Assembly (NCBI RefSeq): GCF_047555085.1
Contig: NZ_CP180230.1
Location: forward strand, 390,001-422,000
DNA: 32,000 bases
Source: Candidatus Saccharimonadota bacterium
GTDB taxonomy: Archaea > Nanohalarchaeota > Nanosalinia > Nanosalinales > Nanosalinaceae
Reading direction: 5' to 3'
This document shows positions 2,681 through 32,000 of the stretch, piece by piece. How positions within the stretch are numbered: position 1 is the first letter of the stretch; every line of letters begins with the position of its first letter. Under the pieces are notes generated by a model that was not told the DNA's origin, did no database searches, and worked only from the letters and a program-made list of their open reading frames with translations. The position numbers and the translations under genes are program-made.

Positions 2681-3229
2681 TTATAAGCTTTTTGAACTTT
2701 CATCGTCGCTATCATCTTTCAAAGTAGTCGGCACGACGACATCCATCTCTTCTGCCTGTCCCTGATCGTAGAAACGAGCAGTCACTGCACCAAGAACAGC
2801 ATCAAACTCACGTGAAGACTCGATACCCGAGGCCTCTACACCTAGAGACTCCAGAGATCTATCACTGTCCAGTGCCAGCTCTCTTCCGGATATAGCAGGA
2901 TCGAAACGGATGAACTCCGGCCTGTCTTCAGCAGCAAGACCTGCCTGAATACGTCTCTTCAAGTCCTGAAAACGCCTTACACGCTGAGTATCGTGAGAAG
3001 CCGGCGTAAAGATATGTCCTTCCTCCTGCAACTCCTCCTCTTCCTCGCTCAGTCCTCTACGTTCTTTCAGGCCTGTATTCACAGCCACTATGTTGGGCTG
3101 AGATTCGATTATTTTTTCAGCAAGCTCCTCGTTGGTTTCGAAACTGTAGCTCTCGACAGAATCCGAGAGAAATGCTACAGTGGATTCAGTGCTATCGTCC
3201 TCAGTCAGATCAATCCCGCAGTAAATCAT
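2681..3229 (-). CDS. hypothetical protein, possibly an RNase H-fold (DUF429-like) nuclease
   Basis: 182-aa acidic ORF. The N-terminal MIYCGIDL and a distal FDAVLGAVTA motif resemble RNase H-like nuclease families. This assignment comes from memory of the motifs only. Confidence 0.35.
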   Translation of the reverse strand: MIYCGIDLTEDDSTESTVAFLSDSVESYSFETNEELAEKIIESQPNIVAVNTGLKERRGLSEEEEELQEEGHIFTPASHDTQRVRRFQDLKRRIQAGLAAEDRPEFIRFDPAISGRELALDSDRSLESLGVEASGIESSREFDAVLGAVTARFYDQGQAEEMDVVVPTTLKDDSDDESSKSL

Positions 3230-3237
3230 AATTTAAT

Positions 3238-4104
3238 TTACACCTTGACTTTCTTCTTCAAAGCTGACTCGTGACTTTTCTCTATACTTCCTTTCCTGTT
3301 CTCACCTGTCGCAAACTCCATCAGGGAACGATTCTTCTCCTTCAACTCTATGATCTCCTCTTCCTCAAGATGATCCTCCAGAACCTGCAAAAAGTCAAGC
3401 AAGGCCTTGTTGTACTCCTGAGGCTTCTCAAAGAAACAGAAAGTTCCTGCATTCTCAAGCACGCTTATAGAAATATTAGGCCTCAACTCTTCAGCGAAGC
3501 TTCTGCTGGAGAAACGATCCTGTTCAGCGTGGATTGCCAGAGAGGTCTTTTCAGGCCTTGAAACACGGTAGTTATCAAGGAAAGTCCTGAAATCATCAAG
3601 ATCAGGCTTCTCAAAAGTATCGATAAACTCTCGTACAACACCGTATTCGGTTCTATCCGAGAAAAACATTTTTTTGGCGATCTTTGGAATACTGCCGATG
3701 CGGAAAAGCATGTTGATCAGTTTCTTCTGAGGAATCTTCGTGAAACGTCTTCTAGGACCTGTCAAAACAGTCGAAACAACATTTTCGTGATCCTCGAACT
3801 CCTGCATGAGACTGTTGCCAAACACGTGAGATACAAGAACAACGTTCTCGAACTCTTCCTGCTCCAGTATACTTTCAAGGGCCTCTTTCTCTCCCTCATA
3901 GTCCCTGAAACTTACTGTAGGCCTGAAACTGGCTGTCCTGAAACTTTTCGAGAAGTAGCGCAGCTGCTGCCTCCAGATATCCGGATTCAGGCCTCCGGGC
4001 ACAAATACTAGCTGTATCCTCGAATCCGTATCGGATTCGAAGTAGTGCATGTTCTCGCTGCCTACCCTGCTTAGAGAAAACTTCACGGTATTCACTATCT
4101 TCAC
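3238..4104 (-). CDS. alpha/beta-hydrolase-fold protein with a degenerate nucleophile elbow
   Basis: 288-aa ORF. LVFVPGGLNPDIW is oxyanion-region-like, and VVLVSHVFGNS sits where GxSxG is expected. The start is a GTG at 4104; an alternative ATG at 4050 would give MHYFESD. Confidence 0.45.
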   Translation of the reverse strand: MKIVNTVKFSLSRVGSENMHYFESDTDSRIQLVFVPGGLNPDIWRQQLRYFSKSFRTASFRPTVSFRDYEGEKEALESILEQEEFENVVLVSHVFGNSLMQEFEDHENVVSTVLTGPRRRFTKIPQKKLINMLFRIGSIPKIAKKMFFSDRTEYGVVREFIDTFEKPDLDDFRTFLDNYRVSRPEKTSLAIHAEQDRFSSRSFAEELRPNISISVLENAGTFCFFEKPQEYNKALLDFLQVLEDHLEEEEIIELKEKNRSLMEFATGENRKGSIEKSHESALKKKVKV

Positions 4105-14982: not shown

Positions 14983-17900
14983 ATGTGTAAATTTTTGGAA
15001 AAAGTGACTTTGATTTCGCTGTTTTTCGTTGTACTGGTTTCATCTTCAGTTGCAGTGTTTTCTATCGAAACCACAGATGGAGAGTTCGATTACAATGATG
15101 TTTCTCCTGATTCACAGTCTGTACAGGTTGTAAGGCTTGTTGACGGAACTGATGAGCCTGTTAATCAGTCCAGACTGGATAACAATACTGCGTTAAGCTT
15201 CAGGTACAGTTACAACGGAACTTTCTATGACATGGAGCATCTTACCGATGGTTTCTACTTCGCAGAGGTTCCGACTAATTCTACAGGACGGCATGTTTAC
15301 TATGAGCTTGTTGATAACTCTCCGACTACAGGAGGAACTGTTAACGCTTCGGAGGAGCTTGAAGCCGGTGATCTTGATGTAGATGTTAACAGCAGTTTCT
15401 CTGGAACTTTTGAGGCCGGTGAGGAAGTTGAACTTCGTGTTGAAGTGGAAAATCTTGGCCAGTACTACGCTGTTGACTCTGATGGATCTGGTGGAGTGAC
15501 TGATGGAGATGTCTTCGTCATAGATTCTGGTGGAGATGGAACTTTTTCCGCAGAGGAGGATGATCTTGTTGCAGGAAAGAGGCCTGATAACGCGGTTTCT
15601 CTGACGTCTGGTAATCCGTGGAACGGTGTTTCACATCCTGTTTCCCTGAATGATTCCACTTCCGGGAACAGCTGGGATGACAGTAATGATATAATTGTAG
15701 TTGACAGGCACAGCGGCGGAACAGTATCGGTAGAGGCCGACGAAGTAATAAACTCTGGAGATGATTCGGCTGTGGATACTGTTGCGGGACAGGAATTGAG
15801 GCCTATGGATGAGATAAGGGACTCTGTGTATTTTGTTTCCGACAGCGGAGATATCAGTCAGGGCGATGAAGTTGTATATGATAACGATACTGATGGGATC
15901 TATACTTCAAGGCCTGATGAAGTTATAGTCGGCAACGAGCCTGTTGAAGGGAATCAGATCACTTCCTCGAACTCTGCTCCGAGTCAGATGGAGTTGAGTT
16001 CCTATGATTCGAACAACGGGAATGACTGGGCTGCTGGAGAAGATCTTATCGCAAGAGATTTCGACGATGATGGCCAGTACACTGCCAGAGCTGATGATAT
16101 TATGGCAGGAGATGAGCCTCCTGAGGGAGCTAATCTTCAGACAGGATCTGTGGAGGCCTGGGAGGACGGTAATACTGCTGTCCCTAATCCGGGGGATGTA
16201 GAGGCCTACGATAATACTTCCGGTGATGACTGGAATCCTTCTGTTGATGCTATCTGGCTTGAGACAAGCAGTGATAATAATGGTTTTACGCAGGGAGAGG
16301 ATGTTGCTCTGGCTGGAAATCCGACTGATGGTCTGGTGGCAACTGAGCCGGTGAATCAGTTTAATCAGTGGACTTCTGTTTCCGCTTACCGTGGAAGCGA
16401 TGGCGATCAGTTTGACATCGATCAGGACGGTATTATCCGTGATTACAGAGGCGGAGGTACTTACTCTGAGCAGTCTGATACCATAGTCACAGGCTCCATA
16501 CCTCAGAATTTCCAGGAGGGAACGTCTTATACTACTACACAGGGATTTGATGATGACTGGACTCTTGATGTTATCAATCCTTTCGAGCAGGGAGCATGGG
16601 ACTCAAATCAGGATACTATCCTTTTCGACTTCAATGATGGAGGTACTTACTCCGAGAGATCGGATCAGATCATCAATCACGGTGGTTCGAACGATGCCAG
16701 CGGCGGAGAGGAGCTTCACAGGCTGAACTCTGTCTCGCAGCAGGATATCATGTGGGCAGATCTCAACGGGAACGGCAGATACGATGCCGGAGATGAAATA
16801 TTCAGAGATCTTGATGGAGATGGACAGTACACCAACCAGTCAGACATACATCTTGCAGGTACTTCTCCAAGCACGGCAGGAGCTGGAACAGGCCTTCAGA
16901 CATCGAATCCATGGGGAGAAGATGATATGCCTGTACTTTTCCGTAATATGAATTCTGATGGAGAAACATGGAATGGATCACAAGACAGCATAATCCATGA
17001 CTTGGATTCCGACGGCGCTTTCACTTCTCAACAGGATACTATCGTTGAGGGAGAGGCCTCTGAAGTTTCAGCAGGCCAGCAGCTGATTTCTACGGATAGA
17101 GATGACTTTGCAAGTCCTGATGTGACTGTATACATAACGAATGGAAACTTTTCCACGGGAATATTTGAACTGGGCAGGGAGCCTGACGGCGACTTTGTTA
17201 ACACGATCGAGATTCCGGAGTACTACGGTGCCAACATGGTGACCCAGTTCAAGGCGGAAACTCCTAGAGGAGGCCTAGTTGGATCAGAGTCACGTGTTAT
17301 AGAGACAAGGAAACGTGGCATAGGATTTGAGGCCCAGTCCGATCTTGATTTCCGTGCAAGGAGGGCAGGAATCTATACTGAGAATATCACTCTTGAGAAT
17401 ATACTTGATACGGAAAACGAGATACATGTGGAGGCCTCTGAAAGCCTTGAAGATATAGTGGAGTTCGAGGATGAGACTGTAACTATAGATCCTGGAGCTG
17501 AAGAAAATGTCTCAGTTGACTTCAATGTTACGCCTGCAGGGGATTACAGCGGAGATATAATTTTCACAGAGAACTCTACAGGAGAGACTGATGACACAGA
17601 AGTGGATATTGAAGGCCCGACGTGCATCGAAAGAACTGAGACTTTCTGTTCATCACAGTCAGGCTGGATGAATGTTACTATGGAGGAGAGAGGTAATACT
17701 ACCAAAGAGTTTACTCTTGACAGCATCTGGAGAGAAGATGAGGCCGTTGCAGTCCAGATAGCTGTGGAGGGGGATATCCGCCAGTATCTTTCTCTTTCAC
17801 ACACAGATATAGAGCTTGAAGATACACAGACAGTGACTGTAGAGTACAGTGCACAGGATCCTGGAGTATACACCGGGAATATAGAAATATCTTCTGGAGG

Positions 17901-18666
17901 AGAATCACTGTCGATACCGGTAGGCCTCAATTCAAGTGTCAAGCAGCTTGAGACAGGTATGGACGCAAGTCCTGTCGAATTTGACTTCGGTGCAGTTCCT
18001 GAAGGAAACGATGTTTCCGACAGAATAACTTTGGAGAACACCGGAACACTTGAACTCAGCGACTTCAACATTTCATCTCAGGACTACAGCCTCAACGCTG
18101 ACTCGATAGAAAGTATAGCGCCGGGAGAATCAACTCAGACAGACTTCACAATCGAGGAGCCGCAGGATCAGCAGGGCCAGTTCACAATAGAGGCCTCCAG
18201 TGAGCAACAGAATGTATCACAGATATTCACTGTTTCCATGAGTCTTGTAACTCCGGTAGAAGACATGAAACAGGAGATAAGAGATAGAGTAAGCGATCTG
18301 AGAAGAAGAGCTAACTCCACACAGGTGCAGAACAATCTTGTCGAAGTTGAATCAGATATCAGCAGTATACAGACTTCATGGGATAGAGGGGATTACAGTA
18401 CGGCTCAGGAAACTTATCAGGCCTCTATCTCAGAGCTTAACAGCATAGAGACTACGGTACAGGCCAATAATCAGGATACTGGTGGAAGTGGGCCTTCACA
18501 GCCAACTGATCCATCAGGCTCTGATTCATCTGAATCCGGTGGAGCAGGATTCCTGATATTTGCGTTTGTGCTGTTGCTTCTTCTGGGAGCAGGATTTGTA
18601 GTGTACACAAGTTACTATCCTGAGGAAGGAGATCCACTGTACGAGGTTCTTGGTGATAAAGAATGA
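14983..18666 (+). CDS. large anchored cell-surface protein: signal peptide, about 9 Ca-binding FG-GAP-like repeats, 3 Ig-like domains, coiled-coil stalk, S/T/P/G linker, C-terminal TM anchor
   Basis: 1227 aa. N-terminal hydrophobic VTLISLFFVVLVSSSVAVFS. Repeated DxDGxYT...D.I.AG motifs. Ig-like segments such as FDFGAVPEGNDVSDRITLENTGTLEL. C-terminal GGSGPSQPTDPSGSDSSESGGAGFLIFAFVLLLLLGAGFVVY. Confidence 0.85.
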   Translation: MCKFLEKVTLISLFFVVLVSSSVAVFSIETTDGEFDYNDVSPDSQSVQVVRLVDGTDEPVNQSRLDNNTALSFRYSYNGTFYDMEHLTDGFYFAEVPTNSTGRHVYYELVDNSPTTGGTVNASEELEAGDLDVDVNSSFSGTFEAGEEVELRVEVENLGQYYAVDSDGSGGVTDGDVFVIDSGGDGTFSAEEDDLVAGKRPDNAVSLTSGNPWNGVSHPVSLNDSTSGNSWDDSNDIIVVDRHSGGTVSVEADEVINSGDDSAVDTVAGQELRPMDEIRDSVYFVSDSGDISQGDEVVYDNDTDGIYTSRPDEVIVGNEPVEGNQITSSNSAPSQMELSSYDSNNGNDWAAGEDLIARDFDDDGQYTARADDIMAGDEPPEGANLQTGSVEAWEDGNTAVPNPGDVEAYDNTSGDDWNPSVDAIWLETSSDNNGFTQGEDVALAGNPTDGLVATEPVNQFNQWTSVSAYRGSDGDQFDIDQDGIIRDYRGGGTYSEQSDTIVTGSIPQNFQEGTSYTTTQGFDDDWTLDVINPFEQGAWDSNQDTILFDFNDGGTYSERSDQIINHGGSNDASGGEELHRLNSVSQQDIMWADLNGNGRYDAGDEIFRDLDGDGQYTNQSDIHLAGTSPSTAGAGTGLQTSNPWGEDDMPVLFRNMNSDGETWNGSQDSIIHDLDSDGAFTSQQDTIVEGEASEVSAGQQLISTDRDDFASPDVTVYITNGNFSTGIFELGREPDGDFVNTIEIPEYYGANMVTQFKAETPRGGLVGSESRVIETRKRGIGFEAQSDLDFRARRAGIYTENITLENILDTENEIHVEASESLEDIVEFEDETVTIDPGAEENVSVDFNVTPAGDYSGDIIFTENSTGETDDTEVDIEGPTCIERTETFCSSQSGWMNVTMEERGNTTKEFTLDSIWREDEAVAVQIAVEGDIRQYLSLSHTDIELEDTQTVTVEYSAQDPGVYTGNIEISSGGESLSIPVGLNSSVKQLETGMDASPVEFDFGAVPEGNDVSDRITLENTGTLELSDFNISSQDYSLNADSIESIAPGESTQTDFTIEEPQDQQGQFTIEASSEQQNVSQIFTVSMSLVTPVEDMKQEIRDRVSDLRRRANSTQVQNNLVEVESDISSIQTSWDRGDYSTAQETYQASISELNSIETTVQANNQDTGGSGPSQPTDPSGSDSSESGGAGFLIFAFVLLLLLGAGFVVYTSYYPEEGDPLYEVLGDKE
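15475..17057 (+). repeat. about nine degenerate coding repeats of about 60-70 aa (FG-GAP / calcium-loop-like) inside the surface protein
   Basis: Recurrent motifs: DSGGDGTFSAEEDDLVAG, DNDTDGIYTSRPDEVIVGNEP, DFDDDGQYTARADDIMAGDEP, YRGGGTYSEQSDTIVTGS, FNDGGTYSERSDQIINHG, DLDGDGQYTNQSDIHLAGTSP and DLDSDGAFTSQQDTIVEGE. Confidence 0.6.
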
Positions 18667-21720: not shown

Positions 21721-23448
21721 ATGAAAGGCCTCAAATTTCTTCCTATTTTAATTTCTGTATTTCTACTTGTTGGAGTCTCTTCAGCTAATCACATGGACAG
21801 AGATGTTTCTGTGATTATAGAAAATAGTAATGGTGATACGCTTAATGCGGAGGATACATCGAGGTTTGTTATAGATTATGGGCAGAATTCTCCTCAGCCT
21901 TTCAGGGTTGCTATACTTTGTGAGGGGTCTGACTGTCCTTATGGTCCTGCGGACTCAGGTGTTTTGAGAGCACCTCTATTTCTGGAACTATGTGGAAAGA
22001 CTATAGATGCTACAAATAATTACTATGGCTCTGATACGGACTTCTGGACTGATAAACAGAGAGTTCCAACAGGATCTACTTTCGGGCCTAATGCTTTGAA
22101 GTGTACTCCAGGGATCAAAGATGCTGATATTGTAGATCAAGATGGTCATGTTGTGAAGAATATTAATACTGATTTCATAGTTGATTACAGGACCAGTGGT
22201 CCTCAGCTGGGTGTATCTATAGATATAGAGAATCTGGGGAATAAGATTAGCCGCTTTAAGATAGAGAACACCGGAGATGGAACCAGTCCTGGGTATGTTA
22301 GAGTAGGCCAGTCTGGGTTATGTGTAAGAGACTGTGGGGATTTCGAACCAGCTAGTACCAATACTATAATGTCGTATGAGAACACAGGTACTGGGTACGT
22401 TAACAGTGTCAATGAATTTATCAGTACAGATTACGGTAACTGTGGTTTTGGAGCAACACTGTGTCAGGTCGCTAATCAGGATTTTGGAGAGCTAGAAAGT
22501 TCGTGTGGCGGCGACTGTCCTATAGGGCATGTTGATCAGGGAAGTAATGCAGATTACATTCCAAGGGGGGAAGTAATAGCTGGGCAGGCTTTTTCTACTG
22601 ATGAGGAGTGGCCTGTAGGCAACATAAATAATCCTTATTTTCATGTGTGTGATAGTTCTCTAGAAGGCTACAAGGAAATGGATGGGAAGACGGTGTACAG
22701 TCCCGGAAGTAATTTTGGGACGAATTACTTCGAATGCCGGGATTATCAGTGGATTCCAAGGCAGCAATGCGACCCTGGCTTTAAATGGGCGGAAGTCGAC
22801 GGTGAATGGATGTGTGATGAGAAAGAACCTTCAAGAATAAACGTCGATTTTCTGAATATACAGAATCTTCCATACAGCGAAGTTGAAAGCGGTTATACTA
22901 CTGGCTTCAGAATACTAAGTAGTGAAGCTGAAAAATTTGAGAACGTGTATGATGCTGAGTTACAGGAAGTTAATGCGGAGTGCTGGATGGGACAGAATGA
23001 TCAGAGGCCTTCTGACAGCAGTAAGAAAGGAGTGGTAACTGTAGATGTTGATGAATTCCGAACAGCTTTCGGTTTAAGCAACATATGGGTTTTAACAGAT
23101 ATTCCAAGTCGAACAGGTGTGGATAATGAAACTTATTCATGTGTGTGGGGGTTCGCAGGTTACGGCCAACATAACCAGTACATCTATCAAGGAGTAAATG
23201 ACTATTTTTTGGAAGCTATGGATGAAGAGGCTATATCCTATTTTGATTACTCTCAGATTCAGGGAATATACCAGAGAAATCAGGATGCCTACAGTAATTC
23301 GTTAAGCTGGGATTACTATGTATCTCTCGATGAGAGGGGTTACACAGCCTTTGGAGGACCTTCACCTTTCAATTCCCCTAATGAGGAGTATCCTTACTGT
23401 CCGCCAGACAATCCGCTGTATCCGGATGCAGATATACAGTGCGACTGA
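21721..23448 (+). CDS. secreted Cys-rich acidic protein, unknown family
   Basis: 575 aa. Signal peptide MKGLKFLPILISVFLLVGVSSANH. Cysteines are scattered through the protein, many in close pairs (CEGSDC, CVRDC, CGGDC, CDPGFKWAEVDGEWMC, and the terminal YCPPDN...IQCD). No TM anchor. Confidence 0.8.
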   Translation: MKGLKFLPILISVFLLVGVSSANHMDRDVSVIIENSNGDTLNAEDTSRFVIDYGQNSPQPFRVAILCEGSDCPYGPADSGVLRAPLFLELCGKTIDATNNYYGSDTDFWTDKQRVPTGSTFGPNALKCTPGIKDADIVDQDGHVVKNINTDFIVDYRTSGPQLGVSIDIENLGNKISRFKIENTGDGTSPGYVRVGQSGLCVRDCGDFEPASTNTIMSYENTGTGYVNSVNEFISTDYGNCGFGATLCQVANQDFGELESSCGGDCPIGHVDQGSNADYIPRGEVIAGQAFSTDEEWPVGNINNPYFHVCDSSLEGYKEMDGKTVYSPGSNFGTNYFECRDYQWIPRQQCDPGFKWAEVDGEWMCDEKEPSRINVDFLNIQNLPYSEVESGYTTGFRILSSEAEKFENVYDAELQEVNAECWMGQNDQRPSDSSKKGVVTVDVDEFRTAFGLSNIWVLTDIPSRTGVDNETYSCVWGFAGYGQHNQYIYQGVNDYFLEAMDEEAISYFDYSQIQGIYQRNQDAYSNSLSWDYYVSLDERGYTAFGGPSPFNSPNEEYPYCPPDNPLYPDADIQCD

Positions 23449-23451
23449 ACT

Positions 23452-24765
23452 TTATTCTGAAGGCCTATTTCCAGGCATATGATAGAATTCTGGCTCTTCA
23501 AGCGTTCCATCAATTTTCAGAGGCTGGTCGTACCCACGTATTGGATCGCCTCTAAAGTCTTCTCCAAGCTCGTTCTCAAATATCTGGTAGACTGCTCTTC
23601 CAAGCTGTCTGTAATTCCTCAGATCCTCTTCGTCCATACCATCTGCTAACTCATCTGCAGACTCCACAAAACTGTCTGTAAGAGTAACATCATACCCTTC
23701 ATTACTGTTAGCCATGAACTGGCTCAAGTTGTTATGTCCGTCATCAATTAGATCAAGTGCAGCACCGACAAAAGCTCTGGCAGTATCACCATCATCTAAG
23801 ACACCATTTGACTCCATTTCAAGGCCTTTATTCAGCTCAAGGCCTGTGACATAATGTTCTGGGAACTGTGTGTCGCCATTACGCATAGTAATTGTTTCTT
23901 TGTCCAAAGATGTTGTGTAGGCACTGTCCTCAGGATCTCTGATTGCATGGAAAAAATACTTCTGAGGACTTGCATCTGTGTTTTCAACATATTTCGTCTC
24001 TAACTCGCCGTCCTGAGAATAAGTTAATAGGCTGACTCCGTGTGTAATACCTCTTATTCCCGCTTCAGATCCGTCAGGCCTCTCACGAATAGATCCTTCA
24101 ACTATTCCTTCAATGGCGGATGGCTGAGGTTCTGAGGCTCTAACTGTAAACATGTTAAACTCTCCGAAGTCAAGACCTATTTCCTGAGCAACGTACTCTG
24201 CAACGTTCGGGACCACCATGTTCTTACCTCCACTGGTGTTTATGCCTGTTGCCGTATCAACGGCATGGACAAGAGATCTGGCAAATCTTACAGAGTCTTC
24301 TACATCTTCCTGCAAAAGGCCTCTAACTCTATCGCTTTCTACAGATCCAGGATTTGTGTATATTTCCTGTGTTCTGTTAACAATGTCGTCTACAGTTCCT
24401 TCAACTTCTTGATGCTGGGGCAACCTCTCCAGTTCTCCTGATAGAAATCCACGGGCAACTTCAACATCGTCTCTCCTCATTTCATCCCACTCTTCCTCGC
24501 TAACTCCATTTTCAATTACTTGGAACTCCGAGGCCTCTTCAGGGTCAACATTAGAATCAGGGATATCTCCAAGAGCTCCGGTCTTGTCCTGAAAAGCGTA
24601 CTGGAACTCCTGATCAATAGGATCGACATCTTTGGATTCGCTGCCTTCAAGAAGGCCAGCACATCCAGATAAAGAGGTTGCGCCTGCAGCGCCTACAGCG
24701 GCTTTCATGAAGTCGCGGCGGTTTGTTCCCAGATCAAACACCTTGTTGTTATTATAGAGTAACAA
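23452..24765 (-). CDS. Tat-exported lipoprotein, unknown function
   Basis: The N-terminus NRRDFMKAAVGAAGATSLSGCAG combines a twin-arginine motif with a lipobox Cys. The ORF track starts at TTG 24765. GTG 24741 (VFDLGTNRRDF) lies about 30 nt downstream of a TATA-like box and may be the real, leaderless start. Confidence 0.75.
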   Translation of the reverse strand: MLLYNNNKVFDLGTNRRDFMKAAVGAAGATSLSGCAGLLEGSESKDVDPIDQEFQYAFQDKTGALGDIPDSNVDPEEASEFQVIENGVSEEEWDEMRRDDVEVARGFLSGELERLPQHQEVEGTVDDIVNRTQEIYTNPGSVESDRVRGLLQEDVEDSVRFARSLVHAVDTATGINTSGGKNMVVPNVAEYVAQEIGLDFGEFNMFTVRASEPQPSAIEGIVEGSIRERPDGSEAGIRGITHGVSLLTYSQDGELETKYVENTDASPQKYFFHAIRDPEDSAYTTSLDKETITMRNGDTQFPEHYVTGLELNKGLEMESNGVLDDGDTARAFVGAALDLIDDGHNNLSQFMANSNEGYDVTLTDSFVESADELADGMDEEDLRNYRQLGRAVYQIFENELGEDFRGDPIRGYDQPLKIDGTLEEPEFYHMPGNRPSE

Positions 24766-24828: not shown

Positions 24829-27087
24829 ATGTTATTCATGTATAGGCATCTGGCTCCTGTTGCTTTAATCGCAGGCCTACTTCTTTTCTCAGTATCGGTT
24901 CAGGCCTATGGAGGAGATGGAACAGTTGATGTTTCCGGAAAGCCAGCGCCTACTACGGGTGTATGTAACGATGATCAAGACAACGATGACGATAATCTTA
25001 TAGATAGGACTGACACAGGATGTACGAAAGTGTACCAGTATGACAGATCCGAGTATGATATGAGGGATTCGGATCTAACATATCAACTCTACGGTGGAGA
25101 AGGCCCTGATACTACGGATCTTTCTGTATCTTATCCAGGATTTGTTGAGAGAAGTTTAGGCCTTAGAATAGAGGACTGTGATCCTGAAAGCGGTTACTGT
25201 TCGTACAATGAGGTTGTAGGCAACGATCCTTTGGTTGTGGAGCGGTGGATAGATAGCTTTGGATATCCACAATGGGCGGGAGGAGAACTGAAGAGTACCG
25301 GAGTTCAGAAGTATGATGCTTCTATTACTGATTATGTAGATCGTGAGGATGCTGAAAGAGATATGTCGGGTAGAGCAGCTGTTAATAATCCTTTACAGGG
25401 AGCCATATTCAGCAATCCGGAAGTCGAGACATGTGGTAATGGGGACAGAAACATGAATGAGGGGAAGAACGTAGGATGTCCTGAAGACTGGGGCTTCCTC
25501 GATGATCTAACTGTTGATGGAGAGACAAGGACTGCACAGCAATCCTCTAATGATATCACGGATGAGCTAAAAGACTCGTTTACTGTGGATGTCGGTATAA
25601 ATCATGGTGCTCCGGTTGAGCAGTCTGATCCTCCAACTTATGAGATGGATCTTCTGGGGCTTGAAGCTGGAGGAGAAGATACTATAAATATACAGTCTCC
25701 AGAGGGAAGGCCTAGAACTGAAGAGCTCTACGAACACGATGGTATTAGTGCAGCACCTGATTTCTTCGCCGATGGAAGGGAGATAAAAGTCGTTTACCCG
25801 TATGCTTCAGAGACGACGTATACCCAGGTCTCTGACGTTGATCTAGTGGAGTCAAGTATAACGCATTATACTCAGACCGGCTTCCGTGTTCCAACTTCAT
25901 GTGATTTCGGAGGTACTGATGGAACCAATGTTAGCTGCCAGTCAACCGGTAACTCTTACTGTTTGACCAGTGATGTAGTGACTAACAGTGTAAGAAATTA
26001 TTCGATTGCAAGCGATACCAGAGAAGTCCAGATTCCTACAAAGGCATACCGTACAGAGGCAACGGATGATCCTCTAAACAATCCCGGATATGTTGAAGAT
26101 ATTACTGACAGAGGCTTTACTGTAAATGTTGAACGGGATATAGAAACAGGTTGGGGAACGCACCCTGCAAATAACTGTCCTACAACTACCGATGAAATGG
26201 AGTGTGATTTCGAAGAAGGAGATTCCGATCCATGCTCACCTTCAGATTATGAATACATATGGACAGACAGCGCTCCGGATTATGATGGAGACGGTGAAGG
26301 AGGAGATTCTTACACTAGCACAGTAACACATGATACAGATATAGTATATGAAGACATTGAGTTCCGTGAAAAAGCAGTGTTCAGTACTGTTTACGAGGAC
26401 AATCAAAATCTGCCTTCGGAGGCCTCTTCCAAGGAAGCTTTATTCAATGGCCATTATAATCTTGACAATATAGTTTATAATGGACCTTACTATTCTCCTG
26501 AAACCAATTATCTAAACGATGACTTTGCTAACAGTCCTGCGGTCTCTTCTTCAAGTTTTGAGGTAACTGTCCAGGATGGAACATTCCATTCCAAGCGTGA
26601 CTATTACGGAGTGTTTGATGTAGATGGAACAAATGGATTCGGCGACTCTTTCATTGCTGTAAAGGAAGGAAGCAAAACTCAGAGCATTCCGGCATTTAAC
26701 AAAGAGACAGCTATCGTAAGTCCTTCAGGAGAAAAAGTCGGGAACGATGAAGGGTTCATGGAGGCCCAAGAGACTAATTTTGTGGATGTAAGCGAGTATT
26801 CTCCTCCAGGCCAGTGTCCTGACGGGATAATCTTCTGCGTTGCAGCTGTCGATCTATCTGTGAAAGAATGGAGCGACTGGGATAGCCCAACACAGCCAGA
26901 ATCCGAGTTTGAAACAATAGATACTATACATGTAAACGAGTCATTTGGCGCTTGCCGCAAGTATCAGGAGCTAATAGGCGGCGCCCACCAATCAATATTA
27001 AGATGCCAGTATGATTACGGGGAAGACTTCCCTAACGAGCCCGTTCCATTCCACAAGCCAAATGTAGTTGGAGGTGATGGCTCATAA
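24829..27087 (+). CDS. secreted acidic Cys-containing protein, unknown family
   Basis: 752 aa. Signal peptide LAPVALIAGLLLFSVSVQAYGG. An N-terminal Cys-bounded acidic loop, CNDDQDNDDDNLIDRTDTGC. No TM anchor. The start could be 24829 or 24838. Confidence 0.8.
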   Translation: MLFMYRHLAPVALIAGLLLFSVSVQAYGGDGTVDVSGKPAPTTGVCNDDQDNDDDNLIDRTDTGCTKVYQYDRSEYDMRDSDLTYQLYGGEGPDTTDLSVSYPGFVERSLGLRIEDCDPESGYCSYNEVVGNDPLVVERWIDSFGYPQWAGGELKSTGVQKYDASITDYVDREDAERDMSGRAAVNNPLQGAIFSNPEVETCGNGDRNMNEGKNVGCPEDWGFLDDLTVDGETRTAQQSSNDITDELKDSFTVDVGINHGAPVEQSDPPTYEMDLLGLEAGGEDTINIQSPEGRPRTEELYEHDGISAAPDFFADGREIKVVYPYASETTYTQVSDVDLVESSITHYTQTGFRVPTSCDFGGTDGTNVSCQSTGNSYCLTSDVVTNSVRNYSIASDTREVQIPTKAYRTEATDDPLNNPGYVEDITDRGFTVNVERDIETGWGTHPANNCPTTTDEMECDFEEGDSDPCSPSDYEYIWTDSAPDYDGDGEGGDSYTSTVTHDTDIVYEDIEFREKAVFSTVYEDNQNLPSEASSKEALFNGHYNLDNIVYNGPYYSPETNYLNDDFANSPAVSSSSFEVTVQDGTFHSKRDYYGVFDVDGTNGFGDSFIAVKEGSKTQSIPAFNKETAIVSPSGEKVGNDEGFMEAQETNFVDVSEYSPPGQCPDGIIFCVAAVDLSVKEWSDWDSPTQPESEFETIDTIHVNESFGACRKYQELIGGAHQSILRCQYDYGEDFPNEPVPFHKPNVVGGDGS

Positions 27088-30000
27088 ACTTCGATAAAGG
27101 CCTCAAAATCCTGATTCTGGCTTTAGTATTCATTACGGCAGTCCAGTTCGGTGCTTCCCAAGGAGCAGTCTTAGACACCAGAGATGAATACTGGATTTAC
27201 TTTGAAGGCCCCGAGGCTAATGAGCAGCTTGCAATGGATTATCCTAACGTTCTAGAAGGCCGGACAAGTTATGAGGATTCGTGCTACTTCAACAACACGG
27301 TTTATAGAGAGGGAGAAGTCAAAGATATAGGGCAAAAGATTGTAACTAATGATGGAGGTGCTGTCAGCTTTGAAGCAGGAGGCTGGCATCCGGATAAAGA
27401 AGTATGTCTGAACATCGGAGGCCAAGGAGATGATGTTGCATCCGGACAGAAAAGAGAAAGTGATAACTACCGTGGCGGAGACAAAGGAGGAGAATGGTGG
27501 GATCTTGATCAATGGGAAGTCACACAGTACCTGAGAAATAACGCAGGATCAGTCCACTCAGATGCATGGAGAGATTACTGGGTTGAACAGCCTGATTCAG
27601 CTTCCTCTCAGGACTCAACAGGTATAATAGAGGGAAGCGGTATAGCCATGGAGGATGACTGTTCAACTTTCCTTGAGTGTGAAGATATCCGCAGTAATAC
27701 AGGATTCGATGATCCATTTGCAGCTAACTTTACTGAAGGAAGTCTGGACGACGACAATAATATTGATACAGATACTCCTTTTTCGATAAGAGGCCTCAAT
27801 AACTATCATAATCGTGTACAGGCAGGAAACTCGACAGGACATCCTGACGGAAGTCAGGGATCAGGAAACACCCAGGATCAGGAAACACCTATAGAAGGCC
27901 TTCAGGATGAACCTCTTCAGAACAGTCATATTGATCCTGAAGACGACGAATGGGCTATGACTCCTACACTGGGTTACGTGATTGCAAATGATGGTACTCC
28001 GCTGAGGCCTGGAAAATGCTACGGTGCTGAAAGAGTTCAGGGAGTAGATAAGAACAAGAGACAGGCCACTTACGCCAACTCTTTTGCTAATGTTTCTCAA
28101 GAGTACGATGGAGGCCTCAGCAGTCAGAGCAGATTTAATTCTCTGGGACTGGCATTTCCTGAAGACTATTCTGAGGATGGTAACTGGATCAATCCAGATA
28201 ATGATTATCGGTCTGCTACGCTTGGAGGATTCTCATGTGATCTTACAGGTAAGGACTGGGGATTCGGTTTCTCAGAGGTTAACCAGTTGAACACCGATTT
28301 TGTCTGTCGTGAAGGCGACTGTGATAAAGAGGGTGATCCATACAATCCTGATGATAGTGGTTTCAATCCAGAGAATCCTCACAGTGTTTCTGCCGAGGCG
28401 GAGGATCTGAACTTTGATTACGCTAATGATCCTACTAGTCATGAACAGGATAATCTTGAGCAGTATCCTGATGCTTGTGGGGATGATCAGAATGAATATC
28501 TGATTCGTGAACACGCTGCTACTTACGGTGGAGAGAGCAATCCAAATCTTGAAGGAAGATCTGATTACTATGCTTGCGCTGACAGGCCTACGGACTGTGT
28601 ATTCGATGGAGAGGTCTACAGTCAGGGAGAGCTTGTGGATGTGCAGGGAGAAGGAGGGAGGGAGGCAGGAGTCAACTCAATAGATCAGGAAATCTGTGTT
28701 GATCTTGATTCCTCAATCCCTGGAGGAGAATGGGTAGATCCGGACAATGAGTCCATTAGAGAGTTCCTTATAGGAGATGGGACTAGAGATAACCCGGAGT
28801 ACTATGTCCGTGATGAAGAACCGATAGAAGGCCAGCCAGGACGCGTGGTCTGGCATGATGGGGATGATACTCCGGGAGCAAGAGAAGCAAGAATTTCTCC
28901 TTACAACCCTGCCGAGTTTGAAGTAGGATATGCATTGGAGGATGATTGTGATCCAGCACTCAGAGACAGTATAAACAGCGGATGTGATGATTCAGGCCTC
29001 TACGAGGAACTGATTCAAGGCCAGTTCGTATACTCGCCATTCAAGGAAGGTATGTACGCTGATGATGCAAACGTTTTCGAAGGCTTTGCAGTAAGAACAT
29101 ACGTTGGGGATGGGACAAGTGATGGAACAAGCGCTGAACATGGGGCCTCAAATGGTCAGGATGAGGAGAATACGGATGGCGTAGTCTTCGATTCTTCTGA
29201 TGAGTGGCCTACTGCTAATCTTAATGATTCAAGTATTGATAGACTGGAGGATACATGGGCAATCTCTAATTATTCATACCATCCTGTAGGCCCTACAGGC
29301 CATATATGGGAGAATGGATCATGCTATGGAAGATCGCCTCTTGATGCTGGAAACAGTCAAGGAGAGTACATAATAACTAAGAATGAGAAGGTGATGGGTA
29401 ACTCCTTCGCAAAAGCAGTTGACTTCAATGATGACGGTACTAAGGAAGGAGTCTGGGTTGATCCTGATATAACGAACAAGACAACTTTGACAGGAGGAAC
29501 GAGCTGTGCGATCAACGGAAACGACTGGGGAATAGGTTTCAATACAGGATCAGGTCTAACGGTTACCGATAACAATACTAATCCTAGATATGAGCCAGAG
29601 GATCTTCACGCTGCTACAGGAAACATTACTTTCGATATAAATTCCGATCCTGATGGCATAGGATCAGGTAGAAATCTCCAGCAGTACCCTGAGGCCTGTG
29701 GGGATGATCAGAACGAGTATCTGATCCGTGAACACATGGATAGTAGAGATGACACGGAGCAGAAGCCAAATCTTGGCCGTAAAAACATCTATGTCTGTGC
29801 TGATCGTATATCTGACTGCGCTTTCCACGGAGAAGTATACAGCGAGGGCCAGGTAGTGGATGTTCAGTCATACGGTAGAGAGGAACGTGGTTCTAACTCT
29901 GTAGATGAGGAAGTCTGCGTTGATGTTGATGAGACTGTTCCTGGAGGAGAATGGATTGATGTGGATAACGAATCTATCAATCAGTTGCTCAAAGGGGAGG

Positions 30001-32000
30001 AAGACGACGGAGAAACTTACACTGAGGACGATCCTGATACATACAACGGACTTGTAAGAGCTAATTCAAGCTATGATGGCGATGGCGTTAAATGGTTCAC
30101 AGATAGCTACGGGCCTGCTGCTGAGGTAGAGTTAACTCCTTACAATCCACTGGATTATTCTGATGGATATGCACTGGAGGATGACTGTGGGCCTGATGTA
30201 GAGTTCTGTGAGGACTCAGGCCTTGCAAATACTCATATGGAGGGGAGGGCGGTGTATTCATACTTTGAAGAAGGTAGGCCTGAAGATGACAGAATCAATT
30301 CTCTTGTTGAGGATGGTAGCGAGGATGAAATAGTTGCTGGAGAGGTGTTCACAGGAGTTTCTGTCAGGACATGGGTGGGATATGCCAACGGTACAGCTAG
30401 TTACGAGCATGGTGCCACAAACAATCAGGATGAGGAGAATACGGAAAATACTGTGTTTGATTCATCTGATAACTGGCCTACAGAGAACTTGAATGATTCA
30501 AGTATTGATAGACTGGAGGATACATGGGCAATCGCAAATACCACTGAGAAGGCTGTAGGGCCTACAGGAAGGCCTTATCCGGAAGGAAAGTGTTATGGTC
30601 GTAGCCCGCTAAGTGTCGATGATTACCAGGTAACTAAGAATGAGAAGGTGATGGGTAACTCCTTCGCAAAAGCCGTTGATATCAATGGAGATGGCACTTC
30701 CAGGAAGAAAGGTGTCTGGGTGAATCCTGATTCCACAGTTGACTCTGCTCTTACAGGAAATCTTTCCTGTGATCTAAACGTGACTGACTGGGGATTCGGA
30801 TATAATGCAAGTACTGATGCCGATTTACAGGTTATCCGTGGAGATGCAAGAGAGTTCGGATACGACAGGGATGATCCTCATGTTGTAGTCGGAGACATAC
30901 CTTTCGATATCAACTCGGATCCTAACGGCGTAGGAGAAGACGAAAATCTTCAGCAATACCCTAACGCATGTGGCGATGACAGAAACGAGTACCTTATCCG
31001 CGAACACCGTGATACCGCCGACAGCACCGAACAGATGCCAGATCTTACAGAGGACGATATATACGGCTGTACAGACAGGATCAGTGACTGTGTATTCAAT
31101 GGTTCCATATACAGCGAGGGCCAGGTAGTAGACATACAGTCATACGGTAGAGAGGAACGTGGAACCAACTCAATAGATGAAGAAGTCTGTGTAGATGTAG
31201 ATGAAAGTATTCCTGGAGGAGAATGGTACGATGTGGATAACGAATCACTGAACCAGTATCTGAAAGGGGAACAAGGCCTCTATACAGAGGATAATCCTGA
31301 TACGTACACCGGAGTGGTAAGGGAAAACGCAAGTTACAGCGGCGATGGCGTAAAGTGGTTCACAGATAGTTATGGGCCTGCAGAAGAAGTAGAAATCTCG
31401 CCGTTCAATCCTTTGAACTATTCTGATGGATACGCTTTGGAGGATGACTGTGGGCCGTCAATCGATTACTGTGAAGACTCTGGAGTGGAGGATACTCATT
31501 TCGAGCCTGATGCTGTGTACTCGTTCTTTGAGGAAGGGCATATAGGCGATGACAGGAGGCCTAGTCCGGAAGATGATACAAAGCCGGATCCGAACAGCGA
31601 CTACTTTGAAGCTATCTCTGTAAGAATGTACGTTGGATTTGCTAACGGTACTGCGTCAGCTGAGCACGGTGCTACAAACGGTCAGGATAAGGAGAACGTG
31701 CCAGATAATCTTGATTTCAACGTTACGAAGTGGGGTAAGACTGTATCGCTAAATGATTCTACGATTGATCCGCTTGAAGACACATGGGCTCTTTCAAACA
31801 GGACTTCTGCGATCGTTGGACCTACAGGAAAGGTCTACAGTGAAGGAAAGTGCTACGGACAGAACGTACTTGATCAACCCGACTACCAGCTTACAAAGGC
31901 TCAGAAAGCTGTAGGTAACTCGTACGCCATGACTGTTGACGTAAATGGAGACGGTACATCAAAGGAGAAAGGTGTATGGGTGAATCCGGATTCAACCGTG
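27078..32000 (+). CDS. giant secreted Cys-rich repeat protein, partial (runs off the right edge), no canonical start codon ahead of its signal peptide
   Basis: Frame 3 is open from the codon after TGA 27075-27077 to the window end (more than 1640 codons); I spot-translated about 0.5 kb at the 5' end and one full repeat unit, and the repeat anchors stay in frame. KGLKILILALVFITAVQFGASQG is encoded at 27096-27164. The first in-frame ATG is at 27234. It is absent from the ORF track only because it has no stop in the window. Confidence 0.8.
27945..32000 (+). repeat. tandem coding repeats of about 1.26-1.30 kb (about 420 aa): three full units and the start of a fourth
   Basis: Phase anchors EDTWA/DEWAM at about 27945, 29245, 30515 and 31775. 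YP.ACGDD.NEYLIREH at 28464, 29684 and 30957. C.F.G.VYS.GQVVD.Q...EVCVD.D...PGGEW.D.DNES recurs in each unit. About 8 conserved Cys per unit. A half unit is also present at 27280-27540. Confidence 0.85.

Follow-up and report, generated by a model that had tools for sequence, protein, structure and literature searches.

A Giant Tandem-Module Protein with a Putative Membrane Anchor in Candidatus Nanosalina sp. VS9-1 and Its Module Family in the Nanohaloarchaeota

The Giant Open Reading Frame and Its Modules

The 32,000-nucleotide stretch of DNA considered here (the window; contig NZ_CP180230.1, positions 390,001–422,000) ends within a giant open reading frame (ORF) whose beginning overlaps the end of a 752-codon gene, o752, on the same strand. 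An original prediction, made from the letters of the window alone, held that this DNA belongs to a small-genome episymbiotic archaeon, which agrees with its source, Candidatus Nanosalina sp. VS9-1, and that the giant ORF encodes a secreted protein of repeated cysteine-rich modules. Nanohaloarchaea are obligate episymbionts whose biology depends on the cell surface; their surface molecules are largely unknown, and attention has so far gone to the SPEARE giants. The giant protein and its relatives define a second phylum-wide family of large, apparently surface-exposed proteins, no part of which is recognized by any domain database; large modular surface proteins are themselves a familiar sort in archaea, and the new element is a domain family that had carried no annotation.

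The giant ORF occupies 27078..32000 (+) and runs on past the end of the window, which holds its first 44% (1,641 of 3,761 codons). The nearest in-frame stop upstream is the TGA at 27075–27077, and a check for in-frame stops, which could have broken the predicted frame of more than 4.9 kb, found none in the 1,641 codons. Repeats were detected by motif regular expressions and by MAFFT alignment of the units of this frame. Each of the six strict motifs named in the prediction occurs three times, in units that start at residues 463, 870, and 1294, and the measured period of 407–424 aa (1.22–1.27 kb) is close to the predicted 1.26–1.30 kb. The four units of the window align with 54% mean column identity and 74 invariant columns, and 8 Cys were counted in each module, the number that had been proposed as conserved. 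Tandem Repeats Finder reported no repeat, the module period lying above its 500-nt limit, and self-BLASTP of the window protein gave the diagonal only.

Module 0 (27159..28463, +; aa 28–462) had been taken for a half module that precedes at least 3.2 further ones. The tandem ~420-aa arrangement stands, but the first unit is whole: it covers positions 3–388 of the 388-position module profile (E 4e-110), and is a diverged module that lacks the CGDDxNEYLIREH motif and is ~30% identical to the other modules of the ORF. Module 1 (28464..29684, +; aa 463–869) is delimited concordantly by motifs, MAFFT, and the profile. Module 2 (29685..30956, +; aa 870–1293) opens a run of three copies, specific to this lineage, that descend from a single ancestral module (see below), and module 3 (30957..32000, +; aa 1294–1641 of 1294–1712), supported by MAFFT and the profile, is cut at the window end. 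Because the module copies are only 54–67% identical as DNA and share exact matches of at most 43 nt (longest match 26–43 nt), they represent old duplications and not an assembly artefact.

The full-length protein was recovered by a profile search of 1.84 billion representative proteins as P0021 (3,709 aa; WP_414838248.1/XOE44758.1, "hypothetical protein ACK3SF_02500", encoded on a 1.046-Mb contig of Candidatus Nanosalina sp. VS9-1). The window translation and P0021 overlap by 1,589 residues without a single difference, and with 27078 as its first position the protein comprises 3,761 aa. An exact 42-nt pattern taken from the end of the window had no match among metagenome contigs. It contains eight modules on the forward strand (aa 28–462, 463–869, 870–1293, 1294–1712, 1713–2128, 2129–2521, 2522–2922, and 2923–3338), which score E 1e-84 to 1e-135 against the ~390-position module profile. 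These are followed by a partial ninth module, a C-terminal region, a Thr/Ser-rich linker, and the tail EVPGLLPVHLIFLMLLSTLIYYRRL; the C-terminus of P0021 reads "...DTSGTTSQTTSEVPGLLPVHLIFLMLLSTLIYYRRL", a VPGL motif with a transmembrane helix anchor. The protein is thus predicted to be surface-anchored and not freely secreted: the exported type of N-terminus that had been proposed is present, whereas the transmembrane segment that the window part lacks lies beyond the window end, so that the protein would remain cell-bound.

Two compositional features set the protein apart from chance or from its neighbors. N-x-S/T sequons number 77, against 35.2 ± 5.1 in shuffled sequences, and none of 2,000 shuffles reached 77. 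The full protein has 72 Cys, against 0–2 in the cytoplasmic ORFs of the window. The extreme acidity that had been remarked on is present in the window part (20.9% Asp + Glu; 6.2% Lys + Arg), but the other ORFs of the window have 19–25% Asp + Glu, so the acidity is typical of neighboring genes, and the Cys content (1.9%) is the unusual feature.

The N-Terminus and the Start Codon

The frame opens with a signal-peptide-like segment (KGLKILILALVFITAVQFGASQGA; 27096..27167, +), as had been predicted, which aligns in translation with the ATG-initiated signal peptides of two relatives, P0001 and P0022. The mature protein probably begins in the sequence A-VLDTRDEYW, with cleavage before V. None of the first 40 codons of the frame is ATG, GTG, or TTG; the sole nearby ATG, at 27077, is out of frame and opens just six codons, MAHKLR, before a stop. 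The RefSeq model WP_414838248.1 starts at Met53 of the giant frame (27234), which drops the conserved signal peptide. With one A fewer in the AAA run at 27086–27088, the ATG at 27077 would be joined to the giant frame as ATG-MAHNFDKGLKILIL... (the same restored start also reads as ATG-MAHNFDKGLKILILALVF...), and the restored ATG-MAHNFDKGLKILILALVF N-terminus has the sequence of a textbook signal peptide, with the o752 stop codon kept intact. A Shine-Dalgarno-like sequence, GGAGGTGAT (27070..27078, +), which may direct initiation here, was read within the 3′ end of o752, where it overlaps the out-of-frame ATG; GGAGGTG is also found upstream of the ATG in P0001. An alternative, non-canonical start would be the in-frame ATA at 27084, 5 nt after this strong GGAGGTGAT element. 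The missing start codon may reflect an error in the homopolymer run, initiation at a non-canonical codon, or a real lesion.

A real lesion would mean that the VS9-1 copy was recently inactivated or is no longer exported, its start codon having been lost and either a Met53-truncated cytoplasmic product or none being made. The lack of start codons, the six-codon reading from the only nearby ATG, and the RefSeq start all fit such a loss; it is nevertheless very improbable, since all 3,761 codons are open, which argues against an old pseudogene, since every module, the cysteines, and the anchor are conserved relative to the orthologues, since the stretch ahead of Met53 shows conservation with the signal peptides of P0001 and P0022, and since removal of a single A restores the ATG, which makes a homopolymer error or a non-canonical start at least as likely an explanation.

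Two further routes into the frame were considered and set aside. A programmed +1 frameshift from the ATG at 27077 (CGA-UAA-A) lacks a slippery codon pair, so that a homopolymer indel or initiation at a non-canonical codon is the likelier explanation. Fusion of o752 to the giant ORF by a −1 frameshift would bury the hydrophobic segment internally, and the relatives have two separate ATG-initiated genes.

The Module Family

Pfam and NCBIfam searches with the window protein gave sub-threshold noise only. Pfam matched no family in the entire 3,709-aa P0021 or in P0039, P0014, P0017, and P0136; among 32 modules, no family matched in one recurred in a second, even with the cut-off at E ≤ 1, and sequence and profile searches of the PDB with the module gave no match. 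The statement that the module cannot be assigned to a known family therefore withstood the profile comparison. A novel fold, which had also been claimed, is not established: AlphaFold2 models of the module from 25- and 32-row alignments reached a mean pLDDT of 60.1 and 56.8, were confident only in short β-strand-rich stretches (around residues 1–60, 70–100, 205–235, 255–290, and 310–340), and gave only noise in Foldseek. An internal duplication of the module (1–110 vs. 231–424, sharing a "G-x-W-x-D-x-D" motif) was rejected as not significant (hhalign E 0.013, probability 3%).

The profile search retrieved 119 representatives at E ≤ 1e-3, 108 of them at E ≤ 1e-10; further homologue searches returned 2 and 7 proteins, and a protein query of GTDB genomes found one distant locus only (L001). 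Informative source names are all nanohaloarchaeal bar two, and include Nanosalina, Nanohalococcus occultus (SVXNc_0418), Nanohalobium constans (LC1Nh_0457), Nanohalovita haloferacivicina, and several metagenome-assembled genomes (MAGs). One member, P0152 (P0087 cluster; 1,533 aa, with the VPGL anchor), carries the database title "MAG: hypothetical protein [Colwellia polaris]" (MFT4868983.1), and this entry probably stems from a nanohaloarchaeal contig that was binned by mistake with a bacterial MAG. A Draconibacterium "HYR-like/VWA" match (P0122) was discarded: it consists of 19 stretches of ~7 bits each on "CDLNSHDW.Y.YN", a summed weak motif and not homology. By these sequence comparisons, the module family is restricted to the phylum Nanohaloarchaeota, and it is previously undescribed; no mention of it was found in the literature that could be searched.

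The family is characterized by a profile of ~390 positions with invariant Cys, Asp, Gly, and Trp columns, by a signal peptide, and by a locus adjoining a DUF1512 gene, all of which are found in the giant protein. Its archetype is SVXNc_0418 (P0039; 1,504 aa), in which a signal peptide and a ~650-aa N-terminal domain precede the single module, and a ~400-aa C-terminal region and a VPGI motif with a transmembrane tail follow it; no part of this protein has a Pfam match. A VPG[ILM] motif with a transmembrane tail is found in 46 of 86 long family members. When orthologues and module copy number were compared between related genomes, most members proved to have one full module, within a range of 1–8, and the giant protein of the window has the most (eight).

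Paralogues combine the module with other domains. A Nanosalina-clade subfamily (P0002–P0013) lacks the anchor and carries GEVED, C-type lectin, and VWA domains, and here an insertion of ~330 aa splits the first module near profile position 230. PKD domains also occur among the paralogues, and some adhesion-type domains are inserted mid-module. In P0023 (4,622 aa), one module is interrupted at ~2440–2700 by GGLVG/GGLAG-type repeats, GLUG-like by eye, with VWA and PKD domains upstream; this repeat block inside a module suggests that the mid-module site tolerates large domain insertions.

The Upstream Gene and Gene Fission

The upstream gene, o752 (24829..27087, +), encodes a protein of 752 aa with 16 Cys and its own signal peptide, MLFMYRHLAPVALIAGLLLFSVSVQA, and corresponds to the N-terminal "head" domain of the family. 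By BLASTP, o752 residues 41–715 match residues 33–657 of SVXNc_0418, and ~45 other family N-termini are similar; the giant ORF matches the remainder of SVXNc_0418, so that both genes map onto one protein. o752 itself has no Pfam or NCBIfam match, and holds acidic Cys motifs of the CxDDxDNDxD...C and CGNGD...C...EDWG types.

The module genes of the P0022 and P0001 contigs are each immediately preceded by a full-length o752 orthologue (31% identity, E 3e-73, for the one on the P0022 contig). On these contigs, the 722-aa head gene overlaps the module gene by ATGA or ends 3 nt from it, and the downstream gene starts with ATG. As the split pair is present in two relatives, the fission is a conserved one, in the course of which the downstream half gained a signal peptide of its own; from these alignments, a single ancestral gene was divided into o752 and the giant ORF.

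An independent fission is found in Candidatus Nanohalovita haloferacivicina (BNXNv; CP107255.1, gene pair at 586971–606024; locus L006, 8001–13975), where the cut lies mid-module. The first gene encodes a 1,017-aa protein that ends after the N-terminal half of the module; the second, joined to it by a GTGA overlap, encodes 974 aa with a new signal peptide, an insert of ~230 aa, the C-terminal half of the module, and a VPGI anchor. The cut falls at the very place where the Nanosalina paralogues carry their VWA insertions, and the module therefore probably consists of two separable halves. With two independent fissions, each accompanied by a new signal peptide and one passing through a module, and with a traceable module duplication, the family offers a clean case for how extracellular proteins split and reassemble.

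The position of the family gene is conserved. The window is collinear with SVXNc through Pus10, CTP synthase, an Ig-like surface protein, two small ORFs, an SpoU methylase, DUF1512, variable secreted proteins, and the family gene. The P0022 contig and BNXNv have the same locus, with ProRS downstream of the family gene; SVXNc shares this order from the Ig-like protein to ProRS, and the gene thus lies at one locus in 4 of 4 genomes or contigs compared, three of them from cultivated genera.

Module History

The modules of the giant protein have individual counterparts in its relatives. Module 0 corresponds to module 0 of P0022 and of P0001 (53% identity), and module 1 to module 1 of both (61–63% identity). 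Modules 2, 3, and 4, which are mutually 62–65% identical, all map to a single module 2 in P0022 and in P0001. Modules 5, 6, and 7 correspond to P0022 modules 3, 4, and 5, and to P0023_2, P0023_3, and P0023_4, respectively. This positional orthology, together with the convergence of modules 2–4 on one module, indicates that six distinct modules were present in the ancestor of the clade and that two more arose by tandem duplication in the line leading to VS9-1. The identity comparison with P0022, P0001, and P0023 gave no hint of concerted evolution among the modules.

Proposed Function and Alternatives

The giant ORF probably encodes the stalk-and-anchor subunit of a Nanohaloarchaeota-specific cell-surface glycoprotein. 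The N-terminal signal peptide would export the protein, and the eight tandem modules would form a long extracellular array, in which the 8 conserved Cys of each module probably make four disulfides, the many invariant Asp, Asn, and Gly probably make cation-binding loops, and the sequons may be heavily N-glycosylated. The C-terminal Ig-like region, the Thr/Ser-rich linker, and the tail of VPGL, hydrophobic helix, and RRL would tether the protein to the membrane. The head domain, which in most nanohaloarchaea is fused to the module, would here be secreted separately as o752, from a gene that overlaps the giant ORF, and would probably re-associate with module 0 outside the cell; the modules would then act as a spacer or scaffold that sets the distance of the head from the cell. 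The VWA, lectin, and PKD domains inserted in paralogues may be displayed likewise. The assembly would serve in building the envelope or in contact with the host cell.

The SVXNc_0418 orthologue is well transcribed in Candidatus Nanohalococcus occultus: at 4,033 reads per kilobase per million mapped reads (RPKM), it ranks ~11th of the ~170 genes in one part of Table S1 of PMC10266531 (~top 7%), a level similar to that of SVXNc_0478, which is annotated as S-layer-like (RPKM 3,458). Several points weigh against the stalk-and-anchor reading. These expression values come from a 27%-identical orthologue in another genus, and the family is so far known from gene sequences and, for SVXNc_0418, from transcripts. 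Association of the head with the stalk is deduced purely from the gene fission, and, with both AlphaFold2 models of low confidence, the extended array, the disulfides, and the cation binding are predictions from sequence. As the frame has no canonical start codon, export of the VS9-1 copy would need an unusual start, a frameshift, or a sequencing error. Models of PGF-CTERM, moreover, do not recognize the C-terminal tail (10 tails, E ≤ 10); the sole exception among the tails is that of SVXNc, with a weak match to the TIGR04281 tail (E 0.062).

The stalk-and-anchor protein can be compared with surface proteins of known type. It resembles haloarchaeal csg and other PGF-CTERM/ArtA substrates in its Sec signal peptide, in an acidic ectodomain with predicted N-glycosylation, in high expression (here of the orthologue's transcript), and in a Thr/Ser-rich stretch before a C-terminal "P-G-x", hydrophobic helix, and short basic tail. 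It differs from them in that its ectodomain has no sequence similarity to csg, which has Ig-like domains where the giant protein has 420-aa Cys-rich modules; in that its tail has VPG[ILM] and not PGF and is unmatched by PGF-CTERM profiles; and in that size and module number vary widely. The SPEARE giants of the same phylum (SVXNc_0300 and BNXNv_0298; PMC10266531) are likewise very large and membrane-bound, with a signal peptide and a proposed role in host interaction. SPEARE proteins, however, have ~75 Ig-like domains of 100 aa, a transmembrane segment, and a cytoplasmic VirB4/TraG-like ATPase (PMC10266531), whereas the giant protein, which has no Pfam match, has neither an Ig-repeat array nor an ATPase, has its transmembrane segment at the extreme C-terminus, is made of a different, 420-aa module, and belongs to another locus (that of SVXNc_0418 and not of SVXNc_0300).

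One alternative is that the family is the nanohaloarchaeal surface (S)-layer glycoprotein, or anchors the S-layer, with the module protein as the stalk and o752 as the outer canopy of a two-dimensional lattice. The presence of the same positional gene in every genome examined is in keeping with this, as are the signal peptide, the sequon excess, the Thr/Ser-rich linker beside the anchor, and the high transcription of the orthologue, and a regular S-layer-like surface was seen by electron microscopy on Candidatus Nanohalobium (PMC7443923), which has the member LC1Nh_0457. Split head and anchor genes also recall two-component S-layers such as the crenarchaeal SlaA canopy and SlaB stalk, where a secreted outer subunit and a membrane-anchored stalk subunit are encoded by adjacent genes; there is no homology, though, and here the gene pair arose by fission of one ancestral gene. 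The S-layer reading is nonetheless unlikely. A module number that varies from 1 to 8 between lineages is hard to square with a fixed lattice geometry, and the Pfam S-layer model PF07752 was matched by only 1 of 32 modules (E 0.036). Nanohaloarchaeota S-layer proteins have been reported in a survey preprint by homology to known ones (10.1101/2024.05.28.596244), and other SVXNc genes are annotated as S-layer proteins; within the same part of Table S1 (PMC10266531), the transcript level of SVXNc_0418 is high, yet not the extreme outlier expected of a major S-layer protein.

A second alternative, raised in the original prediction, is a host-specific attachment adhesin; the modules themselves would bind the host S-layer or glycans. 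Such a role is plausible for a large extracellular protein of an obligate episymbiont with lectin, VWA, and PKD domains in its paralogues, and the family diverges fast (25–35% identity between genera, vs. 54–61% for the flanking SpoU and DUF1512 genes). Repeat-in-tandem adhesins with Ig-like, cadherin-like, or thrombospondin-type-3-like repeats also have tandem spacer arrays with acidic Asp/Asn/Gly motifs that suggest cation binding, and binding domains such as VWA and lectin are grafted on in paralogues of the giant protein. The module, however, is four times larger than typical repeats, is Cys-rich, and has no profile match to such families, and each module position in the array is individually conserved between species and neither diversifies freely nor evolves in concert. 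The giant protein itself has no binding domain recognizable by Pfam, and the gene is a core one that keeps its syntenic place in genera living on different hosts, being neither strain-specific nor island-borne; an envelope role fits at least as well, and a dedicated adhesin appears quite unlikely.

The possible roles are accordingly ranked with the envelope stalk or scaffold first. Too much variation in module number, together with the existence of other candidates for the S-layer, puts the lattice protein in second place, and the core, syntenic character of the gene in genera whose hosts differ puts the dedicated host-specific adhesin in third. It is a more far-reaching reading, and a rather doubtful one, that the 420-aa module and the likewise unannotated 700-aa head and 400-aa C-terminal region are new folds that form the principal envelope or host-contact structure of the Nanohaloarchaeota. 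If so, a phylum-specific surface apparatus would have escaped notice under the label "hypothetical protein"; fission would have divided its subunits repeatedly (ahead of module 0 in Nanosalina, mid-module in Nanohalovita) into parts that are secreted separately and come together again outside the cell, and its length would be tuned through module duplication, from 1 to 8 modules. The family would gain in interest if it proved to be the nanohaloarchaeal envelope or contact structure, and SVXNc_0418, LC1Nh_0457, and the BNXNv pair are concrete targets in culturable systems.

Neighboring Genes of the Window

No tRNA or Rfam element was found in the 32-kb window, and no artA-like ORF was seen in it. 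Over positions 1–21673, gene order is kept relative to SVXNc_0393–0414, with SRP54 at the start, and surface proteins are only 25–30% identical. One of the surface proteins near the family gene, encoded at 14983–18666 (+), is a conserved, apparently secreted protein of 1,227 aa with HYDIN/VesB-like Ig domains, a sub-threshold "choice-of-anchor D" match, 22 N-glycosylation sequons, and only 4% Lys + Arg; its orthologue at the equivalent position in SVXNc is SVXNc_0410 (RPKM 3,110). Between the DUF1512 and family genes lie two further genes for predicted exported proteins, one of 575 aa (21721–23448, +) with a signal peptide, 18 Cys, and no database match, and one of 437 aa (23452–24765, −) in which a lipobox-like LSGC comes after a twin-arginine signal. 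The content of this slot differs between genera, and its comparison with SVXNc gave only a 24-aa match in the signal region.

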